Source of the DNA: Mustelus asterias | Taxonomy: Eukaryota | Assembly (NCBI RefSeq): GCF_964213995.1 | Contig: NW_027590164.1 | Coordinates: 868,001-932,000 of the forward strand | Length of the DNA stretch: 64,000 nt | Direction of reading: 5' to 3' | Shown here: one piece after another, positions 20,726 through 46,969 of the stretch | Numbering within the stretch: position 1 is the stretch's first letter | How the letters are laid out: every line of letters begins with the position of its first letter | Position numbers and translations under genes: made by a program | Notes under the pieces: model-generated | Database searches by the model: none | Seen by the model: only the letters and a program-made list of their open reading frames with translations | Told to the model about the DNA's origin: nothing

Positions 20726-23700
20726 TTTTTTATTCATGCTTGGGACATGGGCTTCGCTGGCTGGTCAACATTTATTCCCCATACCTAGTTGCCCTTGAGA
20801 AGGTTATGGTGAGTTGCCTTCTTGAATCGCTGCAGTACATGTTCTGTGCGTAGACCCACAATGCCGTTAGGGAGGAAATTTAAGGATTTTGACTGAGCGA
20901 TTGTGAAGGAACGGCGATATATTTCCAAGTCAGGATGGTGAGTGGCTTGGAGGGGAACTTCTGCTCCTATGTTCCTATGATGCCAGGTCAGCATCGAAGC
21001 ATAATGCCTCAATCCATGGTAATGTATGTTTGTTCATTTTGGTTAGAAGGAGGAATGCTGACCAGGGCGCTGTTGGAGACAATGGGACCTTTAATGTTCA
21101 GTTCAGCAAACATGGTGCTGGGGAAAATGTATTTGTTCTTCATTCCATCTGAAAGATAGTTGGGGTAATTGTCTCTTAAGCCCCCCAGGAAGCAAAGATG
21201 GAGTCTTAAGTTGCAGGAAAATGTGTGTGTGTGTGTGTGTGTGCGTTGTCTGAAAAACGTCATATTGTTTACAAATCAATTTCACAATGATAACCGGCGT
21301 CCTTCCATTTAAAATAAAAAATAGACACAGAGTGAACACATCAATTTCAGAGTGGTTTCTTTTTCAAATGTCACCTTTGTTGATGACTGAGAAGGACAAT
21401 TTTTGAGAGGTTGGCTCTGTTACAAATGCTGCCCATGAAGCTACCAATTGTGGTTTTATGTTGTCGTTTTCTGTGTCATGAATGAGACCGAGGAGTCCTG
21501 ATGGAGTGCGACTTTTTCCCAAGTATGGTAGTCCCTGCTCTCCTACCGGTGTTGAATGTCTTGATGAGATTGATGAAGGTAAAGATAGGTACATTGGGAA
21601 CATGAAGCAGATATTTTCCAGAGTCAATCTTCCATTAAAAACACAACATTGTGCTTCAGGATAATCCGGATCTTCAAACAGATGAATGTTTTCAGATGTG
21701 TCACTGGCAATGATGTATATATATCTATAGTTGTTGCAGTGTCCTCTGGCGGCTTTTTTTCCGGGTAGTGTTGTGCTTTTGAATCAAGCATCTCCTGTGG
21801 AGTGCATCCTATCTTCCATTAAGAAAGAGAAGATCATAAATATTCACAGAATTGGTATTTATTTTCACCAATTGCCATCCATTCACAAAGTTGCATAATT
21901 TTGTACGCCAGTTACCAACCATTCATAGACATTAATATATTTACGTTTTAATTTAAGTGATGTGATCGTTGCTGGCTAGGTCAAAAGTTGTTGCCGATCC
22001 CTAATTGCTCTTAGTAAGCTGGTGGTGAGCCACCTTCGTGAATTGCTGTGAAGCCTGTGGTGTATGTACTCACACAGTGCTGTTACAGAGGGTGTTCCAG
22101 GATTTCAATCGAGCGACAGTGAAGGAAGGGCGATATTTTTCGAAGTCAGCTCTATGACTGACTTGGAGTGGAATTTACAGGTGATATTCCCAGGTAACTC
22201 TTACCCCTGTCCTTCCAACTGGTAACAGTCCTGTGGTTGGAAGGTGTTGCCTAATGAGTTCCTGAAGTGAAACTTGTAGATACTTAGAAACTTAGAAACC
22301 TAGAAACCCTACAGCACAGAAAGAGGCCATTCGGCCCATCGAGTCTGCACCGACCACAATCCCACCCAGGCCCTACCCCCATATCCCTCCATATTTACTC
22401 ACTAATCCCTCTAACCTACGCATCCCGGGACACTAAGGACAATTTTTAGCATGGCCAATCAACTTAACCCGCACATCTTTGGACTGTGGGAGGAAACCGG
22501 AGCACCCGGAGGAAACCGTAGATGGTGTATAATGCTGCTGTTGTTTGTCGGTGGTGGAGGGAGTGAGCATTTGCAAATGCTATGCTAGTCAAGCCGCCTG
22601 CATTTTCCTGAATGCTATAAAGCTTTTTGAATGTTGTTTGAGCTGCACTCATTCAAGCAAGTGGAAAGAACTCTATTACACTCCTGAGTTGTAGTTTTAT
22701 AGGTGGTGGACAGGTTTGGGGAGTCAGAAGGTGATTTACTCACAGCAAGCTGACCTGATATTCCAGCCGGAGCATTTATATATCGAGTTAGTTCAGCGAT
22801 TAGCCAATGGTAACCCCGACGATGTTTATAGTGGGTGATTCAGTATCGTAATATAATTGAATGACAAGGAGCAATGGGTAGATTCTCTCTTTTTGGAGAT
22901 GGTCATTTCCTGGCGCTCATATTACTAATAATCTCCAAATCACAAGAACAAATAAATATTTCACAAATTATTTTCAGCATTTTATTTGGTACAAATATAA
23001 TTGCAGTTTATTTATTGTAGTTTATTGAGATTCAAATTTATTGAGGTCACTTTGGCCTTTCTGTCACCAAAGAATCAAATCTGTCCCAGAATTCACTGGG
23101 AAGTTGAATTAAATCACACCGAGGATAATGAGCAGCTACCCAGCAGCCTCTGCGCTTTATTGACACGTAATCACCTCATCATCACACATAAATCCCTGAT
23201 ATATAACTGGAGTGTGTAACCATTTTTAAAGTGACTGTACAACTGAAAGGACCTGTATCTAATGTTATATATAATTTATAATATCGAATCTGACGGTATA
23301 GAATCTTAAGATCCAAATTAATTATTCATAGAACAACGAATCTACAGTGCAGAGTGAGACCATTGGGCCCATCGAGTCTGGAACGACCTGAATCCTACCC
23401 AGGCCCTATTCCCGTGACCCCTCATATTAACCCCACTAATACCCCTGACACAAGGGTTAATTCAGCATGGCCAATCAACCTGAGCTGCATATGTTCGGAC
23501 TGCAGGAGGAAACTAGAGTACCCGGAGGAAATCCACACAGACAAGGAGAGAAACTGCAAACTCCACAAAGACAGTGACCTGAGGACGGAATTGAACCCGG
23601 GTCCCTGGCGTTGTGAGGCAGCAGGGCTAACCAATATGACACCGTGCCGCCCTTGCACACTTACACAGTATTGGAAAGTCATTTACCACTTGGATCTGTC

Positions 23701-26560: not shown

Positions 26561-29302
26561 CAATGACACACTTGGAATAAAGGACCTTCTTCTATTTTTG
26601 AAGTAGTAAATCACAAATATGCGAATGTAGAACAGCAAATTTTAGGACCAGCTATCATCACATCCATCCGTCCACTCTCTGATTTCTCAATCAAAACATT
26701 CAGGCATCCAACTATCGTTCATCCCTGCATCAACGCAAGTATTCCTTTATTGTTGGGTAGATGGTGGCGTAATATTAATGCCAGTGTACCAGCAATCCAG
26801 AAGCCCAGGCCAATGATGTGGAGACACGAGATTAAATCCGACCCTGGCAGCTGGTGGAATTTGAATTCAATCAATAAATCTGGAATACATACTGACAGCG
26901 ACCAGATTATCCTCTCTGATTCCCCAATGAAGGAAATCTGCCATCCCTACCTGGTCTCATCAGGATGTGACTGCAGACGGACAGCAATATAACTAACTGG
27001 GCAATGCCTTCTGAGATGCCCTAGCTTAACACTCAGTTCAAAAGAAATTAGGGAAAGGGAATAAATGTTGGCCTTTCCAGAGATTCTGACGTCCCATGGA
27101 AGAATGAAGTGAAAGAAAACACAAGCATACATGTTTATCTAGTATAAAATATATCACCTCTCTGAATCAACTCTCATAATCTGCCGGTATTTTTTTTATA
27201 TCCATGCATCAATGTTTTGTTGTGTTGGAGAGATCATTATTGTTGCTAACAAGGTGCCAGAGAAGCTGAATACTTTCTTTTCCGAAGAAATGGGAAACAT
27301 TCATAGATGTTTGCAACTTAAAAATAATTAAATTGCCTCCAGTACTGTTGCTGGGTAGATTTGTTTATAAATAGGCCCCATTGACAATGCTGAGAGTTTG
27401 AAGTTGGCTTGCAGCCAAGTGTTCAGTACTGAGGAAACAGCTTTTTGATTTACTGAACAAACACCCTCAGATGCTTCCTGTAAATATTTTTGGGTATTTG
27501 GCAGCAGCCTGGACAGTTGCCAAATACTGCGTAGGACAGATTAACGTGAATCTGTAAGGATAACATGGGACTTAGTCAGTTATACAATAAATGTTTTATT
27601 CCCAAAAGGAAGGCACATTTTAAATGGTTTTTCTTCTAAGCAAATATTTTAAATGAATGCACTTTTCATTCTGTGATCAAAAAGTATCGGAAACTAGTCA
27701 ATTGACTTGATGCTATTTCATTTGTATAGCTTCCAAAGAAATGTCCTTCCAACAATTAAAGCCTCTTTATGAACAACTTATGCTGATGTCCCCAATCCCT
27801 CAGTCCCATGAGATCAGTGTAAAGGCACAAAAATGAAAATAATTAAAAGTAAAAGAAAATCATATATCTCCCTTGAACAGCAGGGATTTCTGGAATATTC
27901 TCAATGTTCTGCACCTCATTAAAAACTTATACCTGATGTATAACGTGTTCTTTTGTCCAGCATAATCTGATTTCAATGATTTAACAGTCCCTCTCATAAC
28001 TGCCAATGAGTGAAGAAATGACCAGTTCATAACCTGGTTCAGTGAAAGATAAAATATTTATTCTTGTGATATTGTGCATTATGCCGCAAAGTCCTGATAT
28101 CTTGTGTTCCCAATACCAGCTGCTCGCCAATAAAATGAACTGTCATGATTTGGATGCTGAAGGAGAACTTTCCTGATTGCCGTGTCCGTTCTAATTCATT
28201 AGCTTCTTTGTCAAAAGTCAATGTCAATTTTATGTTTCTCTGTCAACTCAATGCTTAATTGTAAGTCAAGAAGTTTTCTTTCACCGTTAATTTTCACAGG
28301 GTTAAGGAGCTGTTGGGGAAATATAATGTTTAACATTGTATCAGATAAGGAGTTTATTTTGTTAATTTTTTCATGGGCGGCACGGTGGCATAGTGGTTAC
28401 CATTGCTGCTTCACAGCATCAGGGACCGTGGTTCAATTCCCGGAATGGGTCACTGCCTGTGTGAAGTCTGCACATTCTCCAATTGTCTGCCTGTTTATTC
28501 CCATTGTCCAAAGATATGCCGATTCGGTTGATTGGCGATGATGAATTGTCCCATACAATCAAGTGAATTAGCAGGGATGGGAACAGGGCCTGGCTAGGAG
28601 CGTTGTCGGTGTGGGCCCGATATGCTCCTAATGCACTGCAGGGATTCTATGGATATGGGTGCTGCTGGCTGATCAATATTTATTGCCCACCCATTGTCGA
28701 GGGCAGTTGAGAGCTAAACACATTGCTGTGGCCCTGCAATCACATGTAGGCTAGATGAGGTAAGGACGGCATATTTCCTGCTCGAAAGGACATTAATGAA
28801 CCAGATAGGTTTTTACACAATCGACAATGATATCATGGTCATAAGTAGATTCTTAATTCCAGACGTTTTTACTGAATTTAAATTCCACCACCTGCCGTTC
28901 CGGGATTCGAAGCCGGGTCCTGAGAACATTAGTTGAGTTTGTGGATTAATTGTCTCGCAATAATAGCGCTGGGCCACTGCTTCCCTCCTTCTTATATCCA
29001 GTCCCAAATTACAGTGATAGCTATCCACACCTGAAACACAATCATCCCAGCATTAAGTTACATAAATCGATAATAATTCTTCTAATGAATTATCTTTCGC
29101 TGTAATGTGTCAGAGACACAGAATCATTGTAAATCAGACTGACGGCTTTACCCTGATAAGGTAATGTCATCTGTTTATGTCCATTCCCTTGTGAAGGGGT
29201 GCAGAAATAAAGGCACTTAATTTACAATGAAATTGTTTCTTTTCTGTAACAGATGCTCAAATGCAATTTCACCTCTTGGACGAGCAGAGACATGACAATG
29301 GA

Positions 29303-30237
29303 TCTCACTGTTACTCCCTCGGGTTAGTCTGTCTCTGGAATGTTCCATTGTCAGCAATCAATTCACCGGGAATAACCCTTGGTGTTTTTGATATATTTCA
29401 TTTGATTTCATTTGACTTATTATTATCGCATACATGAGTACACAGTGCAAATTATTGTTTCTTGCGCACTGTACAGTCAGAGCATAACGTATATAGGGAA
29501 GGAAGGGAGAGAGTGAATAATGTAATTTTGCAGTCATAGCTGGGGTGTAGAGAAAGATGAACTTAAGGCGACGTAGGTCCATTCAAACGGCTGATTGCAG
29601 CAGGAAATACATTGTTTTTGAGTCGGTTTATACGTGTCCTCAGACTTTTGTATCTTGTTCCCGATGGAATACGGTGAGAGAGTATGTCCGGAGTGCGTGG
29701 CGTTTTATTTTCAGAGGACTTTAGATATTTTTACAAGTGTCGAATCGGAGGTTGTGTTGAGTCAGCGAGAGGCAGAAAGTGGGCGCCCCTGAAACTCTTT
29801 GAGACTGATCTGCAAAGCCAACGCGTTCAATATTGGCAGTAACTGGATGGTCTGGGTCCGACAGGTCCACGAACAGTGGTTACAGTGTCTTCTTCAGTAC
29901 GATAGTCTTGGGTCAACCTACATTTCCTCCACCCCAGGGATTGAGAATCAATTTACTCCACCCAAAGACACTTCAAACAACGGAAAGAGAAAATGCTGGA
30001 AAATCTCAGCAAGTCTGGCAGCATCTGTTAGGAAAGAGAAGAGCTGACTTTTCGATTCCAGATGACCCTTTGTCAAAACATTCGAAATGTCAGCTATTTT
30101 CTCTCCTCACAAATATTGCCAGGCCTGCTGAGATTTTCCAGCATTTTCTCTTTTGGGTTCAATTCCAGGATCCGCAATAATTTGATTTTATACTTTAAAC
30201 GACATCTTCTCTTTGGAAATAAGTGGAAACCGAAGAT
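29303..30237 (+). pseudogene. IGHV: Truncated IgH V pseudogene (leader-intron remnant 29303-29398; V exon 29737-30237)
   Basis: EVVLSQREAESGRP*NSLRLICKANAFNIGSNWMVWVRQ...KDTSNN[210-bp insert]IFSLEIS..TED; acceptor AG>AA at 29735-29736, TGA at 29790, no YYC or RSS, promoter and leader deleted. Confidence 0.9.
29982..30191. mobile_element. Fold-back (Penelope-derived/MER6-like) element inside the pseudo-V
   Basis: Inverted arms AAAATGCTGGAAAATCTCAGCA / TGCTGAGATTTTCCAGCATTTT; TSD acttcaaacaac 29970-29981 vs actttaaacgac 30192-30203. Confidence 0.85.
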
Positions 30238-31928
30238 TTCTATCTTCACCCTATCTGTCCTACATAGACTCCAATTCTACTATGATGAAAATGACTTCTA
30301 ACCACTACTGAAATTGCCAGGCATGCCAGTCAGTTGTCTCAAAGCTGCTATGGAGAAACAAATAATAAAATCATCCAGAGGGCAGGTTTCAACCAGGTGG
30401 TTCACACCCGCCTTCTCAGCAGGGACAACTAAATGTTGGCTTTGTCAGTGATGCTCACATCCAGAGGATCAATAACAACAGTGTAAAGTGCTGCCGATTC
30501 TGGAAATCTAAAACTAAAGCAAAACAAATGCTACTCAGCAGGTCAGTGTGCATCAGCAGATAGAGAACAAGATTCACATTTAAATTCAATGCCAGGATGC
30601 AAAATCTCATTGATATAATTCTAAAGAGCAAGGCTGTTCTCCTCAATATCCTACCTTAATACTGATTCTTCAAACAAAATCACAAATTTACTGGCAATTT
30701 ATCACATCTCGGTTTGTGGGAGTTTGTTGCACGTACATTACCTGTTGTATTAGCAACATGATAGCGGTGACTAAATTCAGCAAAGGTACATTAGTGAGTT
30801 TTAAGAACTTTGGGACTACATGAAGTCGGGTAAAGCGTTCTATAAATGTAAGCTCTACCAAAATGAAAGTTGCAATACGTTGGAAGTGCTGAGAGATTAA
30901 TGCGAATATATTCATTCCTCTGCCTGATCATAGCAGCATAGAATCATAGAATCCAGTGTAGCGCAGTAGGAGGCCATTAGGCCCATCAAGCCTGTAGCTG
31001 CTTTCCAGCAGCGCATCCTATCCAGGCCCAAGCCTTCACCCTACCCCGACAACCTCACATATTCAGAGGCTAATGACTCTAACCTACACATCGTTGGCCG
31101 CGAAGGGGCAATTTAGAATCTCCAATCCACCTTGGGCCTGGGAATGATGCCCTGCTGGACAGCTGGTGCAGACTTGATGGACCGAATGGTCTCCTTCTGC
31201 ACTGTCGGGATTCTGTGATTCTACGTTACTCACCCTTGGACTCAAAGGAGCAATTTATCGTACCAATCCACCTAACCCGTACATCCTTGGACTGTGGAAG
31301 GAAACCGGAGCACCCGGAGGAAACTCACATGGACATGGTAGAATGTGAAAAACCACACACAGTCAGCCAATGTTGGAATCGAACCCCCTTCCCTGTCACT
31401 GTGAGGCAGCAATGCTACTTGTATCACTTAGTGATAACCACACTGGATTTTTTATTCTTCCCTCGTGGGAGTCTGCTCACTAATTGTGACAGGAATATTT
31501 CACACACCAGTTCTCTTTGTTTTAACTTGACTAGTTGAAGCAATTTAGATCATCACTCAAATTAACATTCAGTGGAATACCAATCTGTTCACAGATATTT
31601 TATTTACTGTGACATCAGAACTTGCAGAACAAATTCTTAAATAGAATGTATTTATTCATTTAATAAAGAGCATCTTGTGTAATGTATGTTAAAAATGTTT
31701 CTATTCATTTTGAACCAACTGTTAATATTCTTAAAATAATCGCTATTTTGAGTTGAAACTAATGAATAAGTGACGGTTTATCTGTTTTTGCTGCCATGAA
31801 CATTTTATTGTAAACAGTGAGGAGCTTATGTAAATAAACACAGAAATAGAAATCCCAGATTAGATTGTTGACTGACAAAAACACAACAAATATTTCCCCA
31901 CCAACACAGCACAGAAATAGAGACAAAC

Positions 31929-31936
31929 ATGCAAAT
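31929..31936 (+). promoter_or_regulatory. Octamer ATGCAAAT in conserved block, ~9.4 kb upstream of the leader ATG
   Basis: Exact octamer within a ~92%-identical paralogous block. Confidence 0.5.
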
Positions 31937-34565
31937 CGATCAACGGATTCCAGAAATTGTTGTTTTTATACATTATTTATTCAGCAATTATATGAGGGAA
32001 AAAATCATGACAATATCTATGTTCAGAATTAAGAAAGGATCCCGAAATATAATAACACGAAAAATGTGTTCGTGGAAATTCCCTGTGTTTCATCTCTGTC
32101 TCTGGCTTTCTCCTTCTGGTTCTGAGTCTTGTCTCTTCACGATAGTTCATCGTCTTCACTCCACAACCTCAATTCAATGTTGCCCAATGTATTCTCTCAG
32201 CCAGAGTTGTAAGGAATGCAATGCAATGAATTGGAATCCGTGAGGGAGATTTACTCTAAAGGATCTCTTGAACATTCTATGATCTTGGGATATTTTATAC
32301 ATTTTCCTCTGTATCTAACCTGTGTTGTACCTCGTAAACAGGATTCGATGTGGCAGTACAAAAGAAATTTTCCTTGTATTTATGCCTGCCCTTGGACTGT
32401 TTGACTGGACGGTGTAGAGGAATATTTACTCTGCATCTAAACTCACGTACCTGCCCTTTGAATGTTTGATATTACTTGCAAAGGGAGATTTAATCCGTAT
32501 CTAATCTCTGCTGTACCTGACCTGGGTGTATTTTATGGGACTGTGTAGAGGGATCTTCCCCCTCTACCGAACACCAATTCAAACTTGCCTCCCGAATCTC
32601 TGAAGGAAAAATGCAGAAGTGGTTTTACCTCGAAGAGAGTCCCTTGTCTGTATGCCTTCATTGTATTCGAGCAGACATTGTAGAGGGGGTTTCACTCTGT
32701 TTCTAGACAGTCTACCTTTTCCAGGAATGTTTGATTTTGATAGTGAGAGGGAGGGTCACTTTGTATCTCAATCATGCTGTTCCTGCCTTGGGAGTGTTAA
32801 ATTTGGCAATGCAGGGGGAACTTTACAGATAACCCCATGTTGCTCCTGTCCTGTGAATTTTTGATGGAGCAGTAGGCCGTCTCTCCAGATTTCATGGGGA
32901 TTGAACCAGTCTCTTTATTAGACAGTAAATTTACCCTGTGTCAGCTTCTATTATATAAGGTCATGCCTCGGTTTATGTTGCAGTGGACCCTATCTCTGCA
33001 CATAATAAACGAGGTGCTTTCTCTGATTCTACTAAATTAGACCTTGACCCTGTTTATATTATACATCAACATGTTTCAGCTTATATCAAACTAGACGCTG
33101 TATCGTTTTTTATTAATTTAGACCTGTCTCTGTTTGTATTAAACTATTTGGAGCCTTATTTCTGCATTTGACCCTATCCACGTTTATATTGCATTGGACA
33201 TGGTCTCAGTTTTTATTGCACTGGACAATGTCAGTAATGAGGAAAGTGTTTCGGGGGACACAATTCTCTGCATCCTCCTGAACATGGAACGCTATGAGGT
33301 CTTTGGCACTGGAAAAGAAGCAGTGTTATCTGAAATCTACTTCTGCTGACTGCATTGAAAATGGATACTAAGACCTGTATAGCATGCACTGTCAACACAG
33401 AACAAAGAACAAGAAAAGATACTGCAGAGGAGCAGGCCCTTCAGCACTGGAAGCCCGCACCGACCAAATACTGTCGATCCACTACTGCCTGTTTCAGAAT
33501 CCTGCCAGAGATCACTGTTTTTCATCCAACATAATATCTCTTCTTCTCGTAGAACCGTGGAGGAATGCAGACATCATTCAAATAGAGGCAAAGTTAAGTG
33601 CAGGCATAACACTGACACAGTCTAGTGAAATATGTACAGGGTCAGGATCAAATATTACTTAACCAGCGAGTGTGGCTCGTGCAATATAAACTGATTTCTA
33701 GTCTAGCAGTGTATTAACAGAGACAGACTCTAATTTAACATAAACGGGGTCCTGATCCAGCAAAATAGAAATGGGTTTGTTCCGAGTGCCATGTAGGGAT
33801 GGTCAAAGGCCAAATGCTGATCTTTTCAGTGACATCCATATCCCATGAAACAAACATTACAAATATATATGACAATGTCGAGGAAAATAAAACTGAGACA
33901 CTGTCTCGTGCAGTTTTACTGGACATAGGAGTTCGGCATATAAACTGAGACAGAGCCCGGTAATTAATGATACTGGACCTAAATTTCTTTAGACTGAGAC
34001 GGAGTCAAGTGCATTAATAATAATTACTAATAGATACAGGGCAGTGACAGATGTAAACTGAGACCAATGTATTAGTAATGATTACTGATACAGTATCTAG
34101 ATTGATGTAAACTGAGACAGAGTCCAGTTTATTTGTAATAATTACTGGTACAGGCCTAGACTGATACACACTGAGATACGGACAATGCAGCAATTAGGAG
34201 ATATTGCAACATGCAATTATAGCTGAGACGTGACATAGTCTTAAATAAATAAATACATGGACTGGTGCAGCATTAACGTAAACAGGATCGAGTTTATCAA
34301 AATCTAATGAACTATTAGCATAATAACTGTGACAGAACCATGTGTCATGCATGAAACAGTTGCTCCAGTTTAGTATGCAGTGGCAAATGTTCTGAGGCAG
34401 TAAGAATCGAGACACGGCCTCTTATCAGATCAGCAGAAGCATGGTTCAGTACAGCCATAACTTAGAAATTATAATATAAACAGGGCCTGTGTCTCATATA
34501 CGAACACCTGATATTGAGCCAAGCGCAGGAAATAGCTTAGACATGACCTCCTGGAATATGATCCA

Positions 34566-35258
34566 CGTAAGAAGTCTCACAACACCAGGTTAAAGTCCAA
34601 CACGTTTATTTGGTAGCAAATACCATAAGCTTTCGGAGCACTGCTCCTTCGTCAGATGGAGTGGAAATGTGCTCTCAAACAGTGCACAGACACAGAAATC
34701 AAGTTACAGAATACTAATTAGAATTTGGCTATCAGTTTCTGCTCAGCGACTCTGCGCTGTCGTGTGTCGTGAAGGCCGCCTTGGAGAACGCTTACCTGAA
34801 GATCCAAGGCTGAATGCCCGTGACTGCTGAAGTGCTCCCCCACAGGAAGAAACTGATAGCCAAATTCTGCTCACATGAGGACGGCCTAAACCGGGACGTT
34901 GGATTTATGTCACACTATCAGTAACCCCCAGAGCTTGCCTCCTGGGCTTGCAGAATCTCACTAGCTGTTCTGTCTGGAGACAATACACATCTCTTTAACC
35001 TGTGCTTAATGCTCCCTCCACCACATTGCCTGTACCTTTAAGACCTGGGTGGCTTTAGGGATTCGCATTCTAATTAGTATTCTGTAACTTGATTTCTGTC
35101 TCTGTGCACTGTTTGAGAGCAAATTTCCCCTCCATCTGACGAAGGAGCAGTGCTCCGAAAGCTTATGGTATTTTCTACCAAATAAACCTGTTGGACTTTA
35201 ACCTGGTGTTGTGAGACTTCTTACTGTGTTCACCCCAGTCCAACGCCGGCATCTCCAC
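34566..35258. mobile_element. Penelope-like element with inverted pLTRs and GIY-YIG C-terminus
   Basis: Minus strand LPVGEHFSSHGHS...RRVAEQKLIAKF, plus strand KLIAKF...GLNRD; inverted arms; perfect TSD ATATGATCCA at 34556-34565 and 35259-35268. Confidence 0.9.
35132..35168 (+). ncRNA. Minimal hammerhead ribozyme motif (inverted twin at 34623-34659)
   Basis: ccat-CTGACGA-a-GGAGC-agt-GCTCC-GAAA-gctta-tgg: core, stem II, palindromic AAGCTT stem III. Confidence 0.7.
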
Positions 35259-36329
35259 ATATGATCCAGGCACAGCCTACTGTAATACAGACAGAGGCAG
35301 AGGCTAGCTGAATATAGGCAGAGATATGGTATGTTTAAAATTGTTGTGATTTTGATGTCACTGGCAAAGTCAGCTTTTGTTGCCAAACCATGAATTCCTT
35401 TGAGAATGTGGTGGCAAGCTTTGGGAAGCTGGTGGGTGGGGTGTTCTTCGAGTCAGCTACTTTCTCCAGAATGACATTGAGCTTTTGAGTGGCACAAGTC
35501 AGGCAAGTAGAGAATATTCAATCATCTGTGTCGGCACAGACTTGGTGGGCCGAAGGGCCTGTTCCCGTGCTTTACTGTTCTGTGATATTTGTTCACACTC
35601 CAGCCTTTTGCCTTGTCGATGATGGATAGGAGTTGGGAATTCAGGAGGTGCGTTGTTCACAGCAGAACTCCGAGCGTCTGACCTGCTCCTGTGGCCACAT
35701 GATTTAAACGTCTGTCTCCGTTCAGATTTTCACGAATTATAATTCATAGGATGTTGATAGTGGGCGAATTCAGCGATGGGTAATGCCATTTAATGTCATG
35801 GGGGTTGGTTTGGAATCTCCCTCATTGGAGACTGTCATTGCCTGCCACTTGTGGTGCATTAATGTTCCTTGTCATTCGTTAGCCAAACACTAAATGTTTT
35901 CGAAGTCTTACTGCATATGGACACAGACTGTTTCAGTATCTGAGGAGCCGCGACTGGTGCTGAACTATGTGCAATCATCAGTGAAAATCCCACTTCTGAA
36001 ATTTGATGAAGGCTGAAGCTTGGGGCTAGGTCACCAACCTGAAGAATTCCTGCAGCAATGCGTGTGACTGGCATGATTGGCCATCAACAATCATCTTCCT
36101 TTGTGCTCAGTATGACTCAGGCAGTGGACTCTGTTCCCCCTGATTCCCATTGACTGCAGTTTCGCTCGGGCTCCTTGATGCCACAAACGGTCAGACGCTG
36201 CGTCCATGACAAGGGCAGGCACTCTCTATTCATCTTTTTAATTTATTTTTTAAAATCCATATTTGGGCTCTTTCCAAATCATTTCTGGAATCGAGTGCTC
36301 CTTGCGGGTCCCAAATTGAGCATCTTGGT

Positions 36330-39300
36330 TTGTGTGTGTGTTGTGTGAAATACATCGTGTTTGATACAAATTAATTCCACAATGATCACGTGCATCCTTC
36401 CATTTACACTGCATGACGGACACACAATAAACACATCCAATTCAGATTGGCTTCCTTTACATATGTCACCTTTTCTGATGATTGAGGAGGCCAATTTTTG
36501 AAAAGTTAGTTCGGCCACAAGTGCTGCCCATAAAGCTACCATTCGTCATTGTGTGTTATTGTTTTTGTATCATGAATGGATATTAGGAGCTTTGGTGTAG
36601 AACCAGTTATCACCAAAATCCTGTATTCCTTGCCCTGCTGACGGTGGTGAATGTCTTAGCGAGATTGACCGAAGTACGTTAAAGATATGGACATATATGG
36701 AACATGGAGAAGTTGTTGGCTGGAGTAAATCTTCCAATACAATCACTAAACTGCACATCAGATATACCCGGTCTGCAAGCAGATGATGTATTTCAAGTGT
36801 GACCCCAGCAAAGATCTTTCCCGTGATGTTATGACTGAGATATGCCTATAGTTGTAACAGTCTCTTCCATCGGTTTAGTTTGCAAAAATGTGTGATAAAT
36901 TTGAATCATGCATGTCTTATGGAATTGTGGGTGCCATGGTTGCACAGTGGTTAGCTCTGTTGCCTCACAGTGCCAGGGCCACTGGTTTGGTTCCCGGCGT
37001 GGGTCAGTGTCTGTGCGGAGTCTGTACATTCTCCCCGTTTATGCGTGGATTTCTTCTGGGTGGTCCAGTTTCTTGCACAAGTCCGAACAGGCATGCTGGT
37101 AATGTGCACTGGCCAGGCTAAATTCTCCCTCAGTGTACCCGAACAGACGCTACAGTGTGGCGACTCGGGGATTTTCACAGTGACTTCAAAGCACTGTTAA
37201 TGTAAGCCTACTTGTGACATTAATAAATGAACTACAAACCTTAAATCTTCCAGCAAATAAGGAGAATGTCATAAATGTTCAGAAAGATAGTAATTATTTT
37301 CACTAATGACCGTCCATTCACAATTTAATAAATGCATTCACCAATTCTCATTCATTCGCAAAGGTTAGTCTATTTAAAATTACTTTATGGAAGGTGGGTG
37401 ACTGTCTAAGCTATAATTTATTTCACATTGCTAAGTGCATTCGGTAAGCTGGTGGTTAGCCGCCTTCTTGAACCGCTGCACAACCTGCAGTGTAGGTACA
37501 CCCACAGTGCTGTTAGGAAGGGTTCTCCTGCATTCCGACCCAGCGACAGTAAAGGAGCGGTAATATATGTCCAAGTCAGGTTTATAAGCGTCTTGGAGGG
37601 GAATATCCAGGCGGGGTAGTTCAAATTCATCAATTAACATCAATTAATACAGATAAACAATTATTTCACCAATTATATTCAGCACTTTAATAAATGCAAA
37701 ACATGGCGGATTCTGGAAACTGAAACAAAAACAATAAATTCTGAAAATCTCAACAGGTCTGACAGCATCTGTGATGAGAGAATAGAGTCAAAGTTTCGAA
37801 TCAGGATGACCCTTTTTTTATTTGGAGAAAATTGAAGAGGGCGATGGCATTGGGAAATGATGAGGGTGGAAAGGGATTAGGAAGTTTCTTTAGGATATAG
37901 TTAGTGATTGAGACGTTGATTAGGTTAGTTAGCATGGTTAAGTTGATTATGATATTTGGGATCGGTATGTACGTTGATGCAGCTTGTGTGTGGCTCGAAA
38001 TAGTGCATATAATTAAACAGTGCCTATTTGAACTATTCACATCTCACAAGAAAGTTATGCAGCTTGTCTGACACCTTGTTGGATACAATGATAATCTCCC
38101 CAACGCATTAGGAATACTCTGCCGAAGCGTCATCCAGACTCGAAACGTTGGGTCTATTCTGTCTCCACAGATGCTGTCAGATCTGCTGAGATTTTCCAGC
38201 ATTTTCTGTTTGTTCTCAGTATTTCATTCTGTACAACTTTGCTTTGAATAATTTATTGATATTAACATTTCTTGACATTGTATTGGCCTTTTTGTCACCA
38301 AGGATAAAAATCTGTCCCAGAATGCAGTGGGAAATTCAATGAATTCAGACTGAGGATCATGAGTCGCTACCCAGCAGTCTCTGCGCTTTAAACTCCTGAT
38401 ACATAACTGGTGTGATGATTTCCAAAGTAATGATATGAATTAAACTACCTTGCACCTAATATGATTTTACTGAATTTTTAAATTGCGATTCATTATTACA
38501 TTGTTTTGGGAAATAATGTAACACTTGTAGTTGTCCAGTGAGTTTCACAATATGTCTGTTGCCACATTATTTATTTTACAGCTTGTTACCTTCACTAATT
38601 TGGGTGAGGGCATGTTGAGTGATTTGCTGCACATGTTTCAAATATTACAATCCTCCCTCCTCAGCCAAATCATGTCCCCTCTTTCGATCTTGGATATGAA
38701 TATTCAGCATCAGCAGAGAAATGAACCATCCGTGCCGCAGCAAAATCCCCTCTTCTTTTCGTGAGGATCAGTTTGCTAACTCCCGAGAAAATCGGGTTTG
38801 ATTTCACCCAGACCCTCTGGAAGCATTGAAGTTATTAGGCTGACAGAAATGGAATCAAGGAACGGTTTCAATTTATGAACCAGTCAAGTACAAATCTGGG
38901 AATGTGGAACAGCATCTTTCAGTACCATTTAACAATGCATCCATCAATCCGTTCACTGATTCCTCAATCAAAATATTCAGCCATCCAACTGATAGTCATT
39001 TCATTCATGCCACGGTCATTCATTCCGTTATCAACACAGTCATTCATTTATTGTTTGCGCAGATGGTGACGTAATATTAATTGAAGTGGCCCAGTGATCC
39101 AGAGACCCAGGACAATGATGTGGGGACAGGGATTTAAATAGGAGCATTGCAGCTGGTGGAATTTGAATTCAATAAATAAGGAACAGATACGAATGGCGAC
39201 CATCGGACCCTCTCTGATTCCCCAATGAGTGAAATCTGCCATCGCTACCTGGTCTCACAAGGATGTGACTCCAGATGGACAGCAAAATAGCTGACTCCTT

Positions 39301-40600
39301 CATATGTTCAGAAGTGGCCTAGAAAACCAGTCAGTTCAAGGGAATTTGGGACAGACAAAAAGTGCCGGTCTTTGCATCCAAACATCCCATGGAAAGATAA
39401 AGGGAAAGAAAATACAAACATACATGTTCATGTATCGTCTCTCTGAGACATTTCTCAGTTTGCCTGTAATTCTTTCTATCCATCTATCACAATATCCTGA
39501 TGTGTTGGAAAAATCATCATTGTTGCTAACAGGGTGCCAGAGAAGCTGCATGGAATTCCTTTCATTAGAGATGGGCAAAATTCATCTAGATTTACAACTT
39601 TAAAAAAGTAAAGTGCCTCCAGTACTGTTGCTGGGTAGATTTATTTATAAACAGGCCTGATTGACAACGTGAAGGGTTTGAAGTTGGCTTGCAGCCAAGC
39701 GGTCAGTACTGAGGAAACAGATCATTGTTCTGCTGCACAACACCCCCAGATGCTTCCTGTCAATAACTTTGAGCATTTGGCAGAAGGCTGGATTGCTGCC
39801 AAATACTGTGTGGGACAGATTAGCGTGAACCTAAACGGACAAAATGGGATTCAGCCATTTAAACAATAAATGTTTCATTCGCACAAGAAAGACACATTTT
39901 AAATCGTAATCATTCTAATCAAATATTTTCATTCAATGTCCTGTTCATTATGTGAGTAAATAGTATCGCAAAACAATAAAGTTACCAGATGCTTTTTCAT
40001 TTGTATAACTTCCAAGTAAATGCCATTCCAATAATTAAAGTCAGTTTATTAACCACTTCATGAAATGCGAGAGAGAGATGTTGATGGTCCCAATTCCCCA
40101 GTCAATTGAATTCAGTGCAATGGCATAAAATGCATCGAAATCATATTAAGGGAACATCATAAAACTGACATGAACAGCGGGAATTCCTGGAATATTCTGA
40201 ACGTTCTGTATCGCATTTAAACAGCAGCGTCTCTTGTACCTGATTAACACCCTATTCTATTGTACAGTATAATCTGATTCCTGTTATTGAAGAGTTCCAA
40301 TCATAGCTGCCAATAAGTGGAGAAATGATCAGTTCATAACCTGATTCAATGGAAGATAAAACATTTATTCTTGTGATATTGTGCAATGTGCCGCAAAGCC
40401 CTGATATCTTGTGTTCGCAATACCAGCGAATGTTAGAGCCGGTGGCCGATAGAGTGACCTGCAATGATCTGGATGCTGAAGGAGAACTTTATTGATCTCC
40501 GTGTCCGTTCCATTCATTAACTTCTCTGTCAAAAGTCGAGGTTAATTTTATGTTTCTCTGTCAACTCACTATTTAATTATCAGGAGGGCGGGATTCTTAT
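36330..40600 (-). other. Long decayed Mononegavirales L gene, copy 2, directly upstream of the functional VH promoter
   Basis: In L order from high to low coordinate: ISGLCG...INVLSSIE (~40330-40412), LGSYTNEKA (~39990-40016), VRLGSR*...SSLLPNAQSY...DLFPQ (39705-39840), WIERITGKL (~39460-39485), GEIKPD (~38800), ITQHALT (~38610), DPQSE (~38350), S(R/W)gKIFAGVT (36798-36826). Confidence 0.75.
37692..38214. mobile_element. Fold-back Penelope-type element carrying a ~300-bp L-like viral insert (37815-38118)
   Basis: Arms ~37705-37812 and ~38119-38214; absent from the paralog near 22975; degenerate TSD ttcagcactttaat / ctcagtatttcatt; insert reads IPNALGRLSLYPTRC...ILKKLPNPF on the minus strand. 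Confidence 0.75.
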
Positions 40601-41331: not shown

Positions 41332-41463
41332 GTGAGTAGTTATTTTTCATTGTCCAAGTCTCCCACAGTTACTGTCTCAGTTTTAGTCGATCTCTGTAAT
41401 ATTCCAGAGTCAAAAATCATTACACCAGGATTAATCCTCGGGTTTTTTGATCTATTTTTACAG

Positions 41464-41768
41464 GTGTCCAGACGCAGGTTTTGTTGACTCAGCCAGAGGC
41501 AGAGACCGGGCGTCCCGGAGGCTCCCTGACACTGACCTGTAAAACCAGCGGCTTCGCTCTTAGCAGCGCTTACATGTACTGGATCCGACAGGTTCCCGGG
41601 CAGGGGTTGGAGTGGCTGGTTTACTACTATAGTTCATCTGACAACAGCTACGCCCCAGCAATTAAGGATCGATTTACTGCGTCCAAAGACACTTCAAGCA
41701 ACATCTTCTCTTTGGAAGTGACGAGGCTGAAGACCGAAGACACCGCCATCTATTACTGTGCAAGAGAC
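41464..41768 (+). CDS. IGHV: Functional germline VH exon
   Basis: [27 protein letters not shown]...[13 protein letters not shown]...[11 protein letters not shown]; ttacag acceptor. Confidence 0.98.
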
Positions 41769-41807
41769 CACAGCGAGAGGAACTAGGGATGGACCCGAAC
41801 AAGAACA
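41769..41807 (+). other. VH 23-RSS
   Basis: CACAGCG - 23 nt - ACAAGAACA. Confidence 0.95.
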
Positions 41808-43043: not shown

Positions 43044-43339
43044 GTAAGAACCATGCATTTATTTAGTCAGTGTTTTATTTGAGTTTTTGTTTTGTACTTT
43101 TTCTCGATTTTATTAATTCATTCGTTCAATGTAATGTGGTTTGGTGGATTCTGTGCTGAAAATCTTTACAATGTTTCATGTGATCCTGCTTAAAATGGGG
43201 GTTATAGAATTCTACTGTTAATTGACAAAAGGCGATACTGAGTGATTCAGTCTCTTGTTGTGATTTGGTGTTTATCTGCTGAGGACATTGTGTGGCTGGG
43301 TTACTTTAAATGCATTCCTTTTGTTAAACAGTTCGGCGT

Positions 43340-45260
43340 TTCTTCAATGTTTAATCTCGGTGACATCTAGTGGCTGCGAGTTGCACCATCTACTGCACAA
43401 GTGTTTGAAATCTAACCCAATATTAACAAAATGTGTTAAAGTTTCTACTTTAATGTTGCGAACATGTTCCGCTTAATCACAATCTGGTTTTGTTATCTCA
43501 TTGTTGTGCTTATTTTAATCATTAGTTGCTTTGGTGATGGTCAGATTGGCTGGATTTTAAATTGAGATTTTCTGCCAATGTGAAATTTGATTCTGTTGCA
43601 ACTGTTTGTAGAATTGAGCTGCTTCTGCATGAACCGGGGTTCAGTCCCTCAGTGCTGCGTGTTTCTGGTGAGGAGGTTGTCTGGCTGGATGACTTTGAAT
43701 AAGTAAAATTTGTGAAATGGTTCGGAGATTCTGCATTGTTTCCACTCGGTGACACTGAGCTGTTACACACTTTGTGATTGAATACAAACAGTCTGCGGGT
43801 TTTAAACTACTTGACGCGTGCCTGCAGACAGAAATCAGGCAGGCTTTATTGTATTTGTATTTTTTTAAATCGTAGCTGATAATTGCAGGTTAAACCAAAC
43901 CATGGTTTATGCCACTCGTCCAAAACATAGTTTACCACAGCATTCACAATTTGGGATACATGCCATGTTTAACCTCGGTGGCATCTGACGGCTGCAGCTT
44001 TTACCCACCCAATATTTTAATATGTTTGAAATCTGTTTGAAATATGACCCAATATGAATAGAATGTGGTAAAATTTCAATTTTAATTTGTTGGACATATT
44101 CCACCTCCTCGCAATGCTATTGCTCTTATTCCAAATTTCTGTTTAGTTCAATCATTCATATATTTGGTGACGAGCTGGTTTGCCGGATTGAATATTGAGA
44201 TTTCCTTGCAATCATATTTTTGATTTTGTTGAATGGATAATTGAGTTGCGTCCCCGTGAAACGGATTCATTCCCTCATTGATGTGTTTTGGTGTGTTTCT
44301 GTTGAGGAGGTTCTGTTGTTGGGTCACTAAGAATGTTTAAAATGTGTGAAATGTTTTGGTGTTTCTGCATTGTTTAACCTCGGTGGCAGTGAGCGGTTAC
44401 ACGTTTTCTGGTTAAATGCAAATAATCTATGAGTTTGAAAATCCTTGTAGGGAGAAAATAAGCAGGTTGTGAAATAAATAAAATAAAGGTATTACAGCAT
44501 TTTAATAAATTTTAACTAACTTAGAAATTAAAATAAATCATGTCTTACAACGCTCAATCGGACACTAAGTAGTTGCTGCAAAAAGAAACTTCTCGTTAAC
44601 AAGTTTGATAGTAAAATTAATATAAATCAAACTGTTATTAATCGGTAACATAACTACATATTCACAAAAGATTATTTTCCATTAATATCATTTCGCATTA
44701 ATCGGCGTTAATAGTTCTGCTGTGCTTTGCATACAATTAACATGACCAGAAAGGTTTCTCGGCTGGAAATATTTTGTGATAATTCCAGAAACTATTTCCA
44801 TGATAACATGCTGTTTCCACAGCAGCGCTCAGTTCAACAAGATACTTTGCATTAATTGTTATATCCCCGATGAAGTTCGCATTCACTTAAATCTGAGTTT
44901 TGGAGAATAATTGGCAATAAAACGCTATTTGGCAATTTTTGTGCCCGATTATTACATTGTTTCTGTGCAGGCGCAGCATTCCTTCCAAGTAATTTGTAGT
45001 TGGATGCAGAGGTAATTAATCACTAATCTCATCCCAAAATTTGTGAAATGGTTTGGTGTTTCTCAATTGTTTCTGTATTGTTTCAACTCGGTGATCCTGA
45101 GCGGTTACAGTTTTTCGAGCTAAATGAAAAAAACAAACTGCGTTTAAACATCCTTGTCAGGATAAAACAAACTGGTATCGGAAAAAATAAAACAAATATA
45201 TATTTGAGCATTTTATTCATGTTAACTGATGCTTGCAGATTAAAGTAAATCATGAATTAC
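43340..45260 (+). repeat. Degenerate ~625-bp tandem duplication in the J-C intron (43340-43905, 43960-44545, partial 45040-45260)
   Basis: Shared blocks such as GTGAAATG..TTCTGCATTGTTT..CTCGGTG..GAGC.GTTACA. Confidence 0.8.
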
Positions 45261-46969
45261 AATTCTTACTGTGTCACTGTACCTCTGTTAGGGACATTAC
45301 ACCCTGGATCTGTTATATCTGATGTGCTCATTTTCAGAAAAAAAATATTTTTTTTGCCTAGTTTTCGAAATTTGAGATAGACAGGGAGAAATAGTTAAAA
45401 GTCGAAGGGAATTTTGAAATGAATATCAGTTTAATTTAAAAGAAGTTATTGATTTTTGTTGTAGTTTGAAAATTGATCAATTAGAATCCCGCAGTTTAAA
45501 TAAATGTGACAGAGTGAACACAGTTTTCTGACAGGTGGAATTCGCTAACACTAAACAATTGTTCATATAATGGTGTTTGAATTGTCGTAAGGTGTCAACA
45601 GAAACTGGCTAGAGATTTGCAATTTAATACTTGAAATTCAAATAATTAATTTTTATAATATTATAATATTTTTATATTAGTAATATTTGCTCTGCATTTA
45701 ATAATCACATCCTGTCTCCCATTACTGCTGAACATAGAATAGAATTATTGGATGAATAAATGACAGAATGGAAGAATTGATTCTATTTGAGCATTATGTT
45801 TAATTAGTATTAAATATTATACTGAAGAAAAAGTCTCGACTTATTTTGTGCATCATGTTTCAGTGTTGCAGAGGATTTGAATCAATTGTCCTCATTGTGT
45901 TTTTCATTGTTTAATTCAGAACTTCTTAATTTAAACAATATGTTCAGTAATTAAATTATATGGATGGTCCAAATTATTAAATCTAGGAAGCAGCTTCATT
46001 GACCTCAAACTGCCAGGCCGTTACAGTATATACAAATTCAGAAACATGCATTCTTAACACGTTTGCAGGTTATAATAAGGCATTTGGAGTAAAAGTGGAA
46101 ATGAAAAAACATGACAATGTTATTCGATTTAAGCAAATGAATTACAGATGTCTGAATTTTTCCATTCAGTAATTTGAAGTTTATTGTTTAAGATTTAATT
46201 GGAACCTAATTACTTCACAATGTTCGAGGCAGGGAAAGTTTTGAATGATTGAAAACTGATTTTATTAGGGAGTACAAATCAGCTAACAGGAAAAGTAACC
46301 GGCAATTAACAAAACAAAATATAATATTGGTGCTAATTAATTCAAAACAAAATACCTTGAATAATGCACGGGCGTGCAAAGTATCATCCGTTTCAGAGAA
46401 TGTTTAATTGTATCGAAAATGAATTAAGAGACAAAACCTTTCTTTCATCAGCTATGCTTAGCTCGATAAGGTGTTTTATCTCGAATATTTTGTTGATTAC
46501 ATTTAATTAAGAAATTCGATCGAATCAGGTAATGATTTTCAATGTAAATGTTTCTTGGTTTATTTAATCCTTACTGTGTCACTGTATCTCTGTCGGGGAC
46601 ATTGAACTGTCCTGAATCTGTTATTTTTGATTCCTAATTTTCAGCGAAATTACATTTTTACATAGTTTTCGAGAAGTGAGACAGACAGAGAGACTTAATT
46701 TAAAATCGACAGGAGTTTTGAAATGAATATCAGTTTTATTTAAAAGAGGTTATTGATTTTCTGTTGCAAATTGATCATTGATCAATTAGAATCAAACAGT
46801 TTGAATTAAATTGACAGATTGATCATACCTACCTGCTGGGAAATCGATTGTTGCACCGTTTGTGTCTGTTCTGTTTCTGCGCGCGTGGTCACTGTGTTGG
46901 GACCAGGAATCTGCCTGACTGGTTGTAAAACTTCTGGTTCCTTCTGCTGTATTTCAGGGAGTGAAATTT

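Follow-up and report, generated by a model that had tools for sequence, protein, structure and literature searches.

From our analysis of the window (the whole 64,000-nucleotide stretch studied here), we conclude that the sequence around 37692-38228 is probably the remnant of a single old two-armed insertion of a Penelope-like element, with a 302-bp filler that contains, in reverse, a copy of sequence found 1.4 kb away; this copy was likely taken up by template jumping or repair synthesis when the arms became joined. The copies of this unit that we examined descend from one event and were multiplied along with the immunoglobulin clusters that carry them. A filovirus or paramyxovirus origin of the filler, as proposed in the original prediction, was not borne out.

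The IgM cluster and its upstream blocks

The window holds what we take, from its immunoglobulin motifs, to be a shark IgM heavy-chain cluster, with the constant exons presumably at 54-58 kb and the VH exon placed as follows.

41451-41786, plus strand: VH exon of the IgM cluster (ORF translation; immunoglobulin family presumed from its motifs).

The DNA upstream of VH is present twice, as block A (~13.7-30.0 kb) and block B (30.2-41.7 kb), which are 67-80% alike. Block A ends in a dead VH copy (29650-30260), which is interrupted by the hairpin at 29982-30191. Three upstream blocks, with the Penelope unit present twice, were seen in loci L030, L031, L035 and L036 (C71:5081708-5105531, C91:754482-773370); in these three-block clusters one block is a mosaic of B and A, which suggests unequal crossover.

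Several other features of the window were recorded. Segments of 100-400 bp are repeated 3' of VH at 43268-46825, reflecting paralogy of the D/J region, and a G-rich 20-bp array lies at 52.5-53.2 kb. A young two-armed Penelope insertion of a different family occupies 34567-35260, with arms that are 97% alike and a GIY-YIG tail between them; it is missing from most other clusters, where 34565 joins 35259. On the minus strand, the stretches 21233-21783 and 36328-36845 are paralogous, have 1 and 2 stops per ~160 codons, and gave no Pfam or PDB match. Codon-position bias in the comparison of blocks A and B was absent from four of five segments (p 0.45-0.95) and weak in the fifth, 21233-21714, which belongs to this paralogous pair (p 0.036, one of five segments).

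Structure of the two-armed unit

The unit and the sites related to it comprise the following features.

37678-37691, plus strand: left copy of the target-site duplication, ~14 bp, decayed (12/14 letters equal to the empty site).
37691-37814, minus strand: left arm, a 5'-truncated 3' end of a Penelope-like element with a terminal tail of ~35 nt (125 aligned columns against family copy L098).
38117-38214, plus strand: right arm, starting from the hammerhead-like core and without the tail (alignment to a family copy; genome count of the 31-nt core motif).
38215-38228, plus strand: right copy of the target-site duplication (11/14 letters equal to the empty site).
22973-22986, plus strand: empty paralogous site in block A with a single target copy (letter comparison with both duplication copies).
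29982-30191, no strand assigned: two-armed insertion of related sequence, nearly spacer-free, within the dead VH copy (arm comparison).

The inverted arms that had been reported at 37692-38228 were recovered by alignment (37719-37814 against 38125-38220, 81% over 97 nt, E 1.5e-17), and the ~300 bp said to lie between them proved to be a filler of 302 bp (37815-38116). Both arms are 3' ends from a GIY-YIG Penelope-like family, placed head to head, with the tail on one arm only: the left arm reaches the family end, the right arm ends ~35 nt short of it. The two copies of the target duplication share 9 of 14 letters (hand count), in agreement with the degenerate duplication described earlier. The reported lack of the unit at the paralogous site near 22975 also holds, and three further A-type paralogous sites, in L025, L028 and L030, are likewise empty. 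These empty block A sites support the earlier conclusion that the insertion is younger than the block duplication. The second hairpin, which had been described as spacer-free, is nearly so: at 29984-30153 its own arms are 86% alike, and they are 74-79% alike to the arms of the 37691-38214 unit.

The arm family

The 31-nt core motif of the arm occurs 754 times in the genome as an exact match (control 0), and the arm is present at 24 of the 30 loci found with an RT-region query. Longer family copies carry, upstream of the arm, frames that we take from their motifs to be RT and GIY-YIG-type. From these two observations we infer that the arms are the 3' ends of an endonuclease-bearing Penelope-like family, and the RT/GIY-YIG family, the one-sided tail and the target duplication together uphold the earlier naming of the arms as Penelope-type. 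The combination of a truncated copy in inverted orientation, a tail on one side and duplicated target sequence is described for Penelope-like elements in the available text of two publications (PMC8557442, PMC3846280). By eye, the start of the arm shows a hammerhead-like core; Rfam returned no hammerhead match at E<=1 for the window stretch and five family loci, its other matches being miRNA-shaped and of chance kind, and minimal hammerhead motifs require a descriptor of their own according to the available part of PMC4209133.

Two arms were found at nine of the first 30 family loci. At eight of these the fold holds 3-39 nt, and at the ninth, L100, it holds a 373-nt dispersed repeat; none of the nine contains a filler resembling the 302-bp insert. 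Two further family loci were noted. In the middle of a two-armed Penelope insertion, L206:2433-2497 has a match of 66 nt (82%) to its own flank (L206:626-691), 1.8 kb away and in the same orientation, which could be a repeat. Directly adjoining Penelope ends, L092:1793-2570 is an uninterrupted frame of 259 codons, possibly a retrocopy or a large exon, which in our reading resembles a magnesium-transporter (NIPA-type) gene.

Composition and sources of the filler

The filler consists of two parts, and the first of them has two homologs in the window.

38023-38113, minus strand: reversed copy of DNA from upstream of VH, core 38034-38113 (73-81% to 39495-39590).
39495-39590, plus strand: likely template of the reversed piece, in block B, 1.4 kb from the insertion (alignment and identity comparison).
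27218-27308, plus strand: block A paralog of the template (alignment and identity comparison).
37815-38022, minus strand: filler poor in G (on this strand, 6% G over 37822-38017).

The segment 38023-38113 matches 39495-39590 and 27218-27308 in reverse orientation at 72-82%, with E down to 1e-18. These are the sole homologs of the insert in the window and lie on the opposite strand, contrary to the claim that the insert has the same orientation as all other fragments. The reversed homology starts within ~5 nt of the inner end of the right arm and fades after ~90 nt, and the reversed homolog accompanies the unit both in the window and at each of the 20 loci L021-L040. Over the core (85 columns), class means were 80.9% for insert and B, 77.6% for insert and A, and 76.2% for A and B; among the 18 informative columns, the insert agrees with B in 10 and with A in four, and A agrees with B in four. 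The closeness of the core to B, together with the empty A site, agrees with copying from B after the duplication. Over the full 113-nt segment the insert is 73% alike to A and 70% to B (A and B 78%), and in a tree the insert copies form their own well-supported clade on the longest stem, which midpoint rooting places outside A plus B; this greater distance tells against local derivation. The first 10 and last 27 columns of this segment are not homologous, and the closeness to B appears only without those ends. Past the shared piece, A and B continue alike (82%, columns 95-122), so that the rest of the filler would come from a second template. Greater likeness to a local copy than to its paralog, as expected for a templated insertion, was found for ~90 of the 302 bp, which is also the share of the filler that could be traced. 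The filler junctions, examined for microhomology at switch points, are heavily decayed.

For the G-poor part of ~200 bp, no source was found in the window, the fetched loci, the Penelope family or the protein representatives, and no arm-free copy was found among the fetched loci and 24-mer matches. The reading of the filler as ordinary Penelope internal sequence was set aside, as it did not align with RT, EN or pLTR of the arm family: the best profile scores on 80 family loci were below 4 bits (exclusive of the far 5' end and of other families). The idea that the filler end is Penelope RT, suggested by a shared FLQIK, failed in the comparison with family loci. Regarding a mitochondrial source, no mitochondrial protein family was found by Pfam in the six frames of the insert; COX1 had no match in the assembly, and the mitochondrial genome is therefore taken not to be part of it. 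The minus frame of the filler has 0-3 stops in 28 copies and none in P0001; a frame with at most one stop per 102 codons arose in 6.3% of 5000 shuffles, and pN/pS in the minus frame was 1.35 (copy pairs not being independent).

One insertion in many copies

In DNA searches with the filler, the candidates scored (40 of 90 and 40 of 79) were 85-100% alike. When at most three mismatches are allowed, a 24-mer of the filler occurs 78 times in the genome (control 5), and every occurrence is on a contig numbered C71 or higher, the set that holds the IgM clusters. Both arms accompany 95 of 96 filler matches in the fetched, partly overlapping loci, the last being cut at the locus edge, and at the fetched loci, ~61 distinct places by tally, the flanks are those of the same site. 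The copies examined are thus a single old insertion that was multiplied along with the IgM clusters, and the idea of acquisition at this locus over a long period does not hold for them. No filler-free copy at the same site was found among the loci fetched. Contigs of four public runs from four organisms cover the filler at >=85%; no RNA run was listed among the runs covering it, which has no bearing on expression. Among 1.84 billion protein representatives, the only match was an ENA record carrying this unit, arm and filler together.

Comparison with viral L proteins

The peptides quoted in support of an L fragment lie on the minus strand as stated, but not in a single reading frame: IPNALGRL...LPNPF is found in one frame with one stop, and TDPKY in another. 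Two of the 28 distinct copies have the G of the 'LG' motif, the other 26 having E, and the motifs are spaced ~50 and ~77 codons apart in the insert (hand count). In real L proteins the first motif lies 62-63 residues before DP/NP (45 of 47 regions) and 92 before PNP (12 of 47), so that the insert has neither the conserved motif residues nor their spacing.

Our L set was obtained by motif scans of IMG/VR, which gave 54 loci and 48 frames of >2100 residues, 10 filovirus-type and 38 paramyxovirus-type as assigned by motif and record length, the records being without names. A region profile built from 47 of these 48 proteins was applied to 132 frames of 22 insert copies and gave at best 2.7 bits, versus 3.9 for reversed controls; as a positive control, a paramyxovirus-only profile gave 54-66 bits on 100-residue pieces of filovirus L. 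The best pairwise score between insert and L was 39, a resemblance of 17 residues to one L protein, which was equalled by 76 of 200 shuffles. Viral tblastn of insert copies reached 26.6 bits versus 25.8 for reversed controls, and tblastn of the L set against the window gave no match below E 0.5. A whole-L profile, which covered all six frames of the window, gave at best -1.3 bits versus 0.7 reversed (1872 pieces, six window frames plus 20 loci). In 195-nt windows of the 48 L genes, G content averages 20% and does not fall below 8.2%, as against the 6% of the G-poor filler. By the profile, tblastn, motif and spacing tests, the insert does not appear to be a filovirus or paramyxovirus L fragment, within the limits that decay lowers the sensitivity of these tests and that the set may lack divergent fish viruses.

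The older L-derived endogenous viral element supposed to surround the insert found no support either, in the window-wide L profile, tblastn or Pfam searches of the flanks. Pfam gave no family in six frames of the insert and of 38800-40600, in three minus frames of 30240-38800 (one match at E 0.46 fell under the cut-off) or in eight minus-frame translations of block A. A nucleoprotein-like flank or plus frame had no support in Pfam or PDB, the two resources through which nucleoprotein genes were examined. PF00946 had no match across the genome, in a search with a stricter first pass that is not evidence of absence. The PDB resemblance to a Rep protein (E 0.019 single, 0.11 profile) was rejected on the loss of the aligned histidine in most diverged copies, and other PDB searches gave E>1 or nothing. 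IMG/VR was blank or at chance level for the filler, no codon-position bias distinguished insert from flank, and the ESM Atlas gave only unnamed matches below 0.9 for the ORF at 26567-26989. Of the claim that Penelope RT delivers viral cDNA, the capture of foreign sequence at the fold is retained and its viral nature is not. Our literature search brought up no publication in which Penelope captures viral sequence, and none that deals with this shark repeat, although such papers may exist.

Origin of the unit

In the mechanism that we favor, the endonuclease would have made a staggered cut of ~14 bp, and each cut end would have primed a short copy of the 3' end of the element. At least two templates would then have served to bridge the gap, with the neighbouring block B DNA copied first, in reverse, and after it a G-poor sequence that has since been lost or has diverged beyond recognition. 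The unit would later have been multiplied passively with the IgH clusters under neutral decay. Either the RT or host repair may have been the copier, and the copying may have taken place at insertion or later. Templated local DNA at insertion sites is described for L1 in the available text of PMC11702581.

Two alternatives keep the filler within the shark genome. The arms may have arisen first as a near-spacerless hairpin that later broke at the fold and was mended with sequence from nearby and from farther away; short spacers predominate among the two-armed loci (8 of 9), L100 has its dispersed repeat at the fold, and the left arm lacks the first bases of the core, but as no filler-free copy was found among the fetched loci, such a repair would have to predate the whole cluster expansion, and we regard this course of events as unlikely. 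Less probable in our judgment is that the whole filler derives in one piece from an old repeat, or from a third and older copy of the DNA upstream of VH, lost or unseen. The separate, long-stemmed clade of the insert is in line with this, as are the 229 matches of the shared motif, of which 100 were listed, and the 40 candidates scored in each DNA search; against it, A and B share the continuation past the shared piece that the filler does not have, all matches among the 100 listed are on cluster contigs, and the G-poor part has no arm-free copy.

A source outside the nuclear genome has also been weighed. The G-poor ~200 bp could be non-host RNA, from a virus lacking known kin, or mitochondrial nucleic acid, onto which the Penelope RT jumped. 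No host source was found for this part, its composition is strongly skewed and its frame open, and it is joined to the left arm through a short stretch of A, oriented as would be expected from a jump onto the 3' end of an RNA. Such an origin is nevertheless improbable given the lack of matches in Pfam, PDB (best E as for the Rep protein) and IMG/VR, the protein representatives that returned only the arm-plus-filler unit itself, the pN/pS value (from non-independent pairs) and an open frame that is within chance. Its most specific form, in which an RNA virus without a sequenced relative was joined to local DNA by successive Penelope RT jumps and spread to ~80 antibody clusters, we consider very improbable. 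That a filovirus or paramyxovirus L fragment was placed into an older L-derived element through repeated acquisitions seems to us extremely unlikely: the 17-residue resemblance that speaks for it has a score readily reached by shuffled sequence, the region and whole-L profiles stayed below their reversed controls and far from the positive control, the G content is under the minimum of the L genes, the claimed orientation fails, and there was one event only.

The two-armed Penelope-like insertion patched with filler has counterparts in known systems. Penelope elements capture host DNA (PMC3846280, available text), and Pen2a_Av and Pen1_Av of Adineta vaga, according to the available text of PMC3846280 and PMC8557442, resemble the shark unit in having head-to-head 5'-truncated copies, a one-sided tail of 30-40 nt, a short target duplication and unrelated host DNA captured beside or between the pLTRs. 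They differ from the shark unit, which is without an ORF, has arms of ~100-125 nt, and contains captured DNA that was in part traced to a place 1.4 kb away, in reverse. In twin priming by L1, both cut ends are likewise extended, with duplications of 12-18 bp, and its templated insertions take up extra sequence copied from nearby DNA or from another RNA (PMC11702581, available text), but L1 is another class of element, and the shark arms share the same terminal sequence instead of being adjacent parts of one RNA. Paramyxovirus-like endogenous elements, reported from teleosts only in the available text of PMC11521997, were found there by protein similarity to RdRp or N, of which the shark insert and its flanks show none.

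A viral reading, if true, would make Penelope elements a route for the endogenisation of RNA viruses; the present case illustrates how a change confined to one copy may look like a viral motif. The unit would represent a further footprint of patched two-armed Penelope insertions, here from two templates. Being shared by at least 78 shark IgH blocks, and found in the data of other sharks too, this single insertion is a marker of their genealogy.
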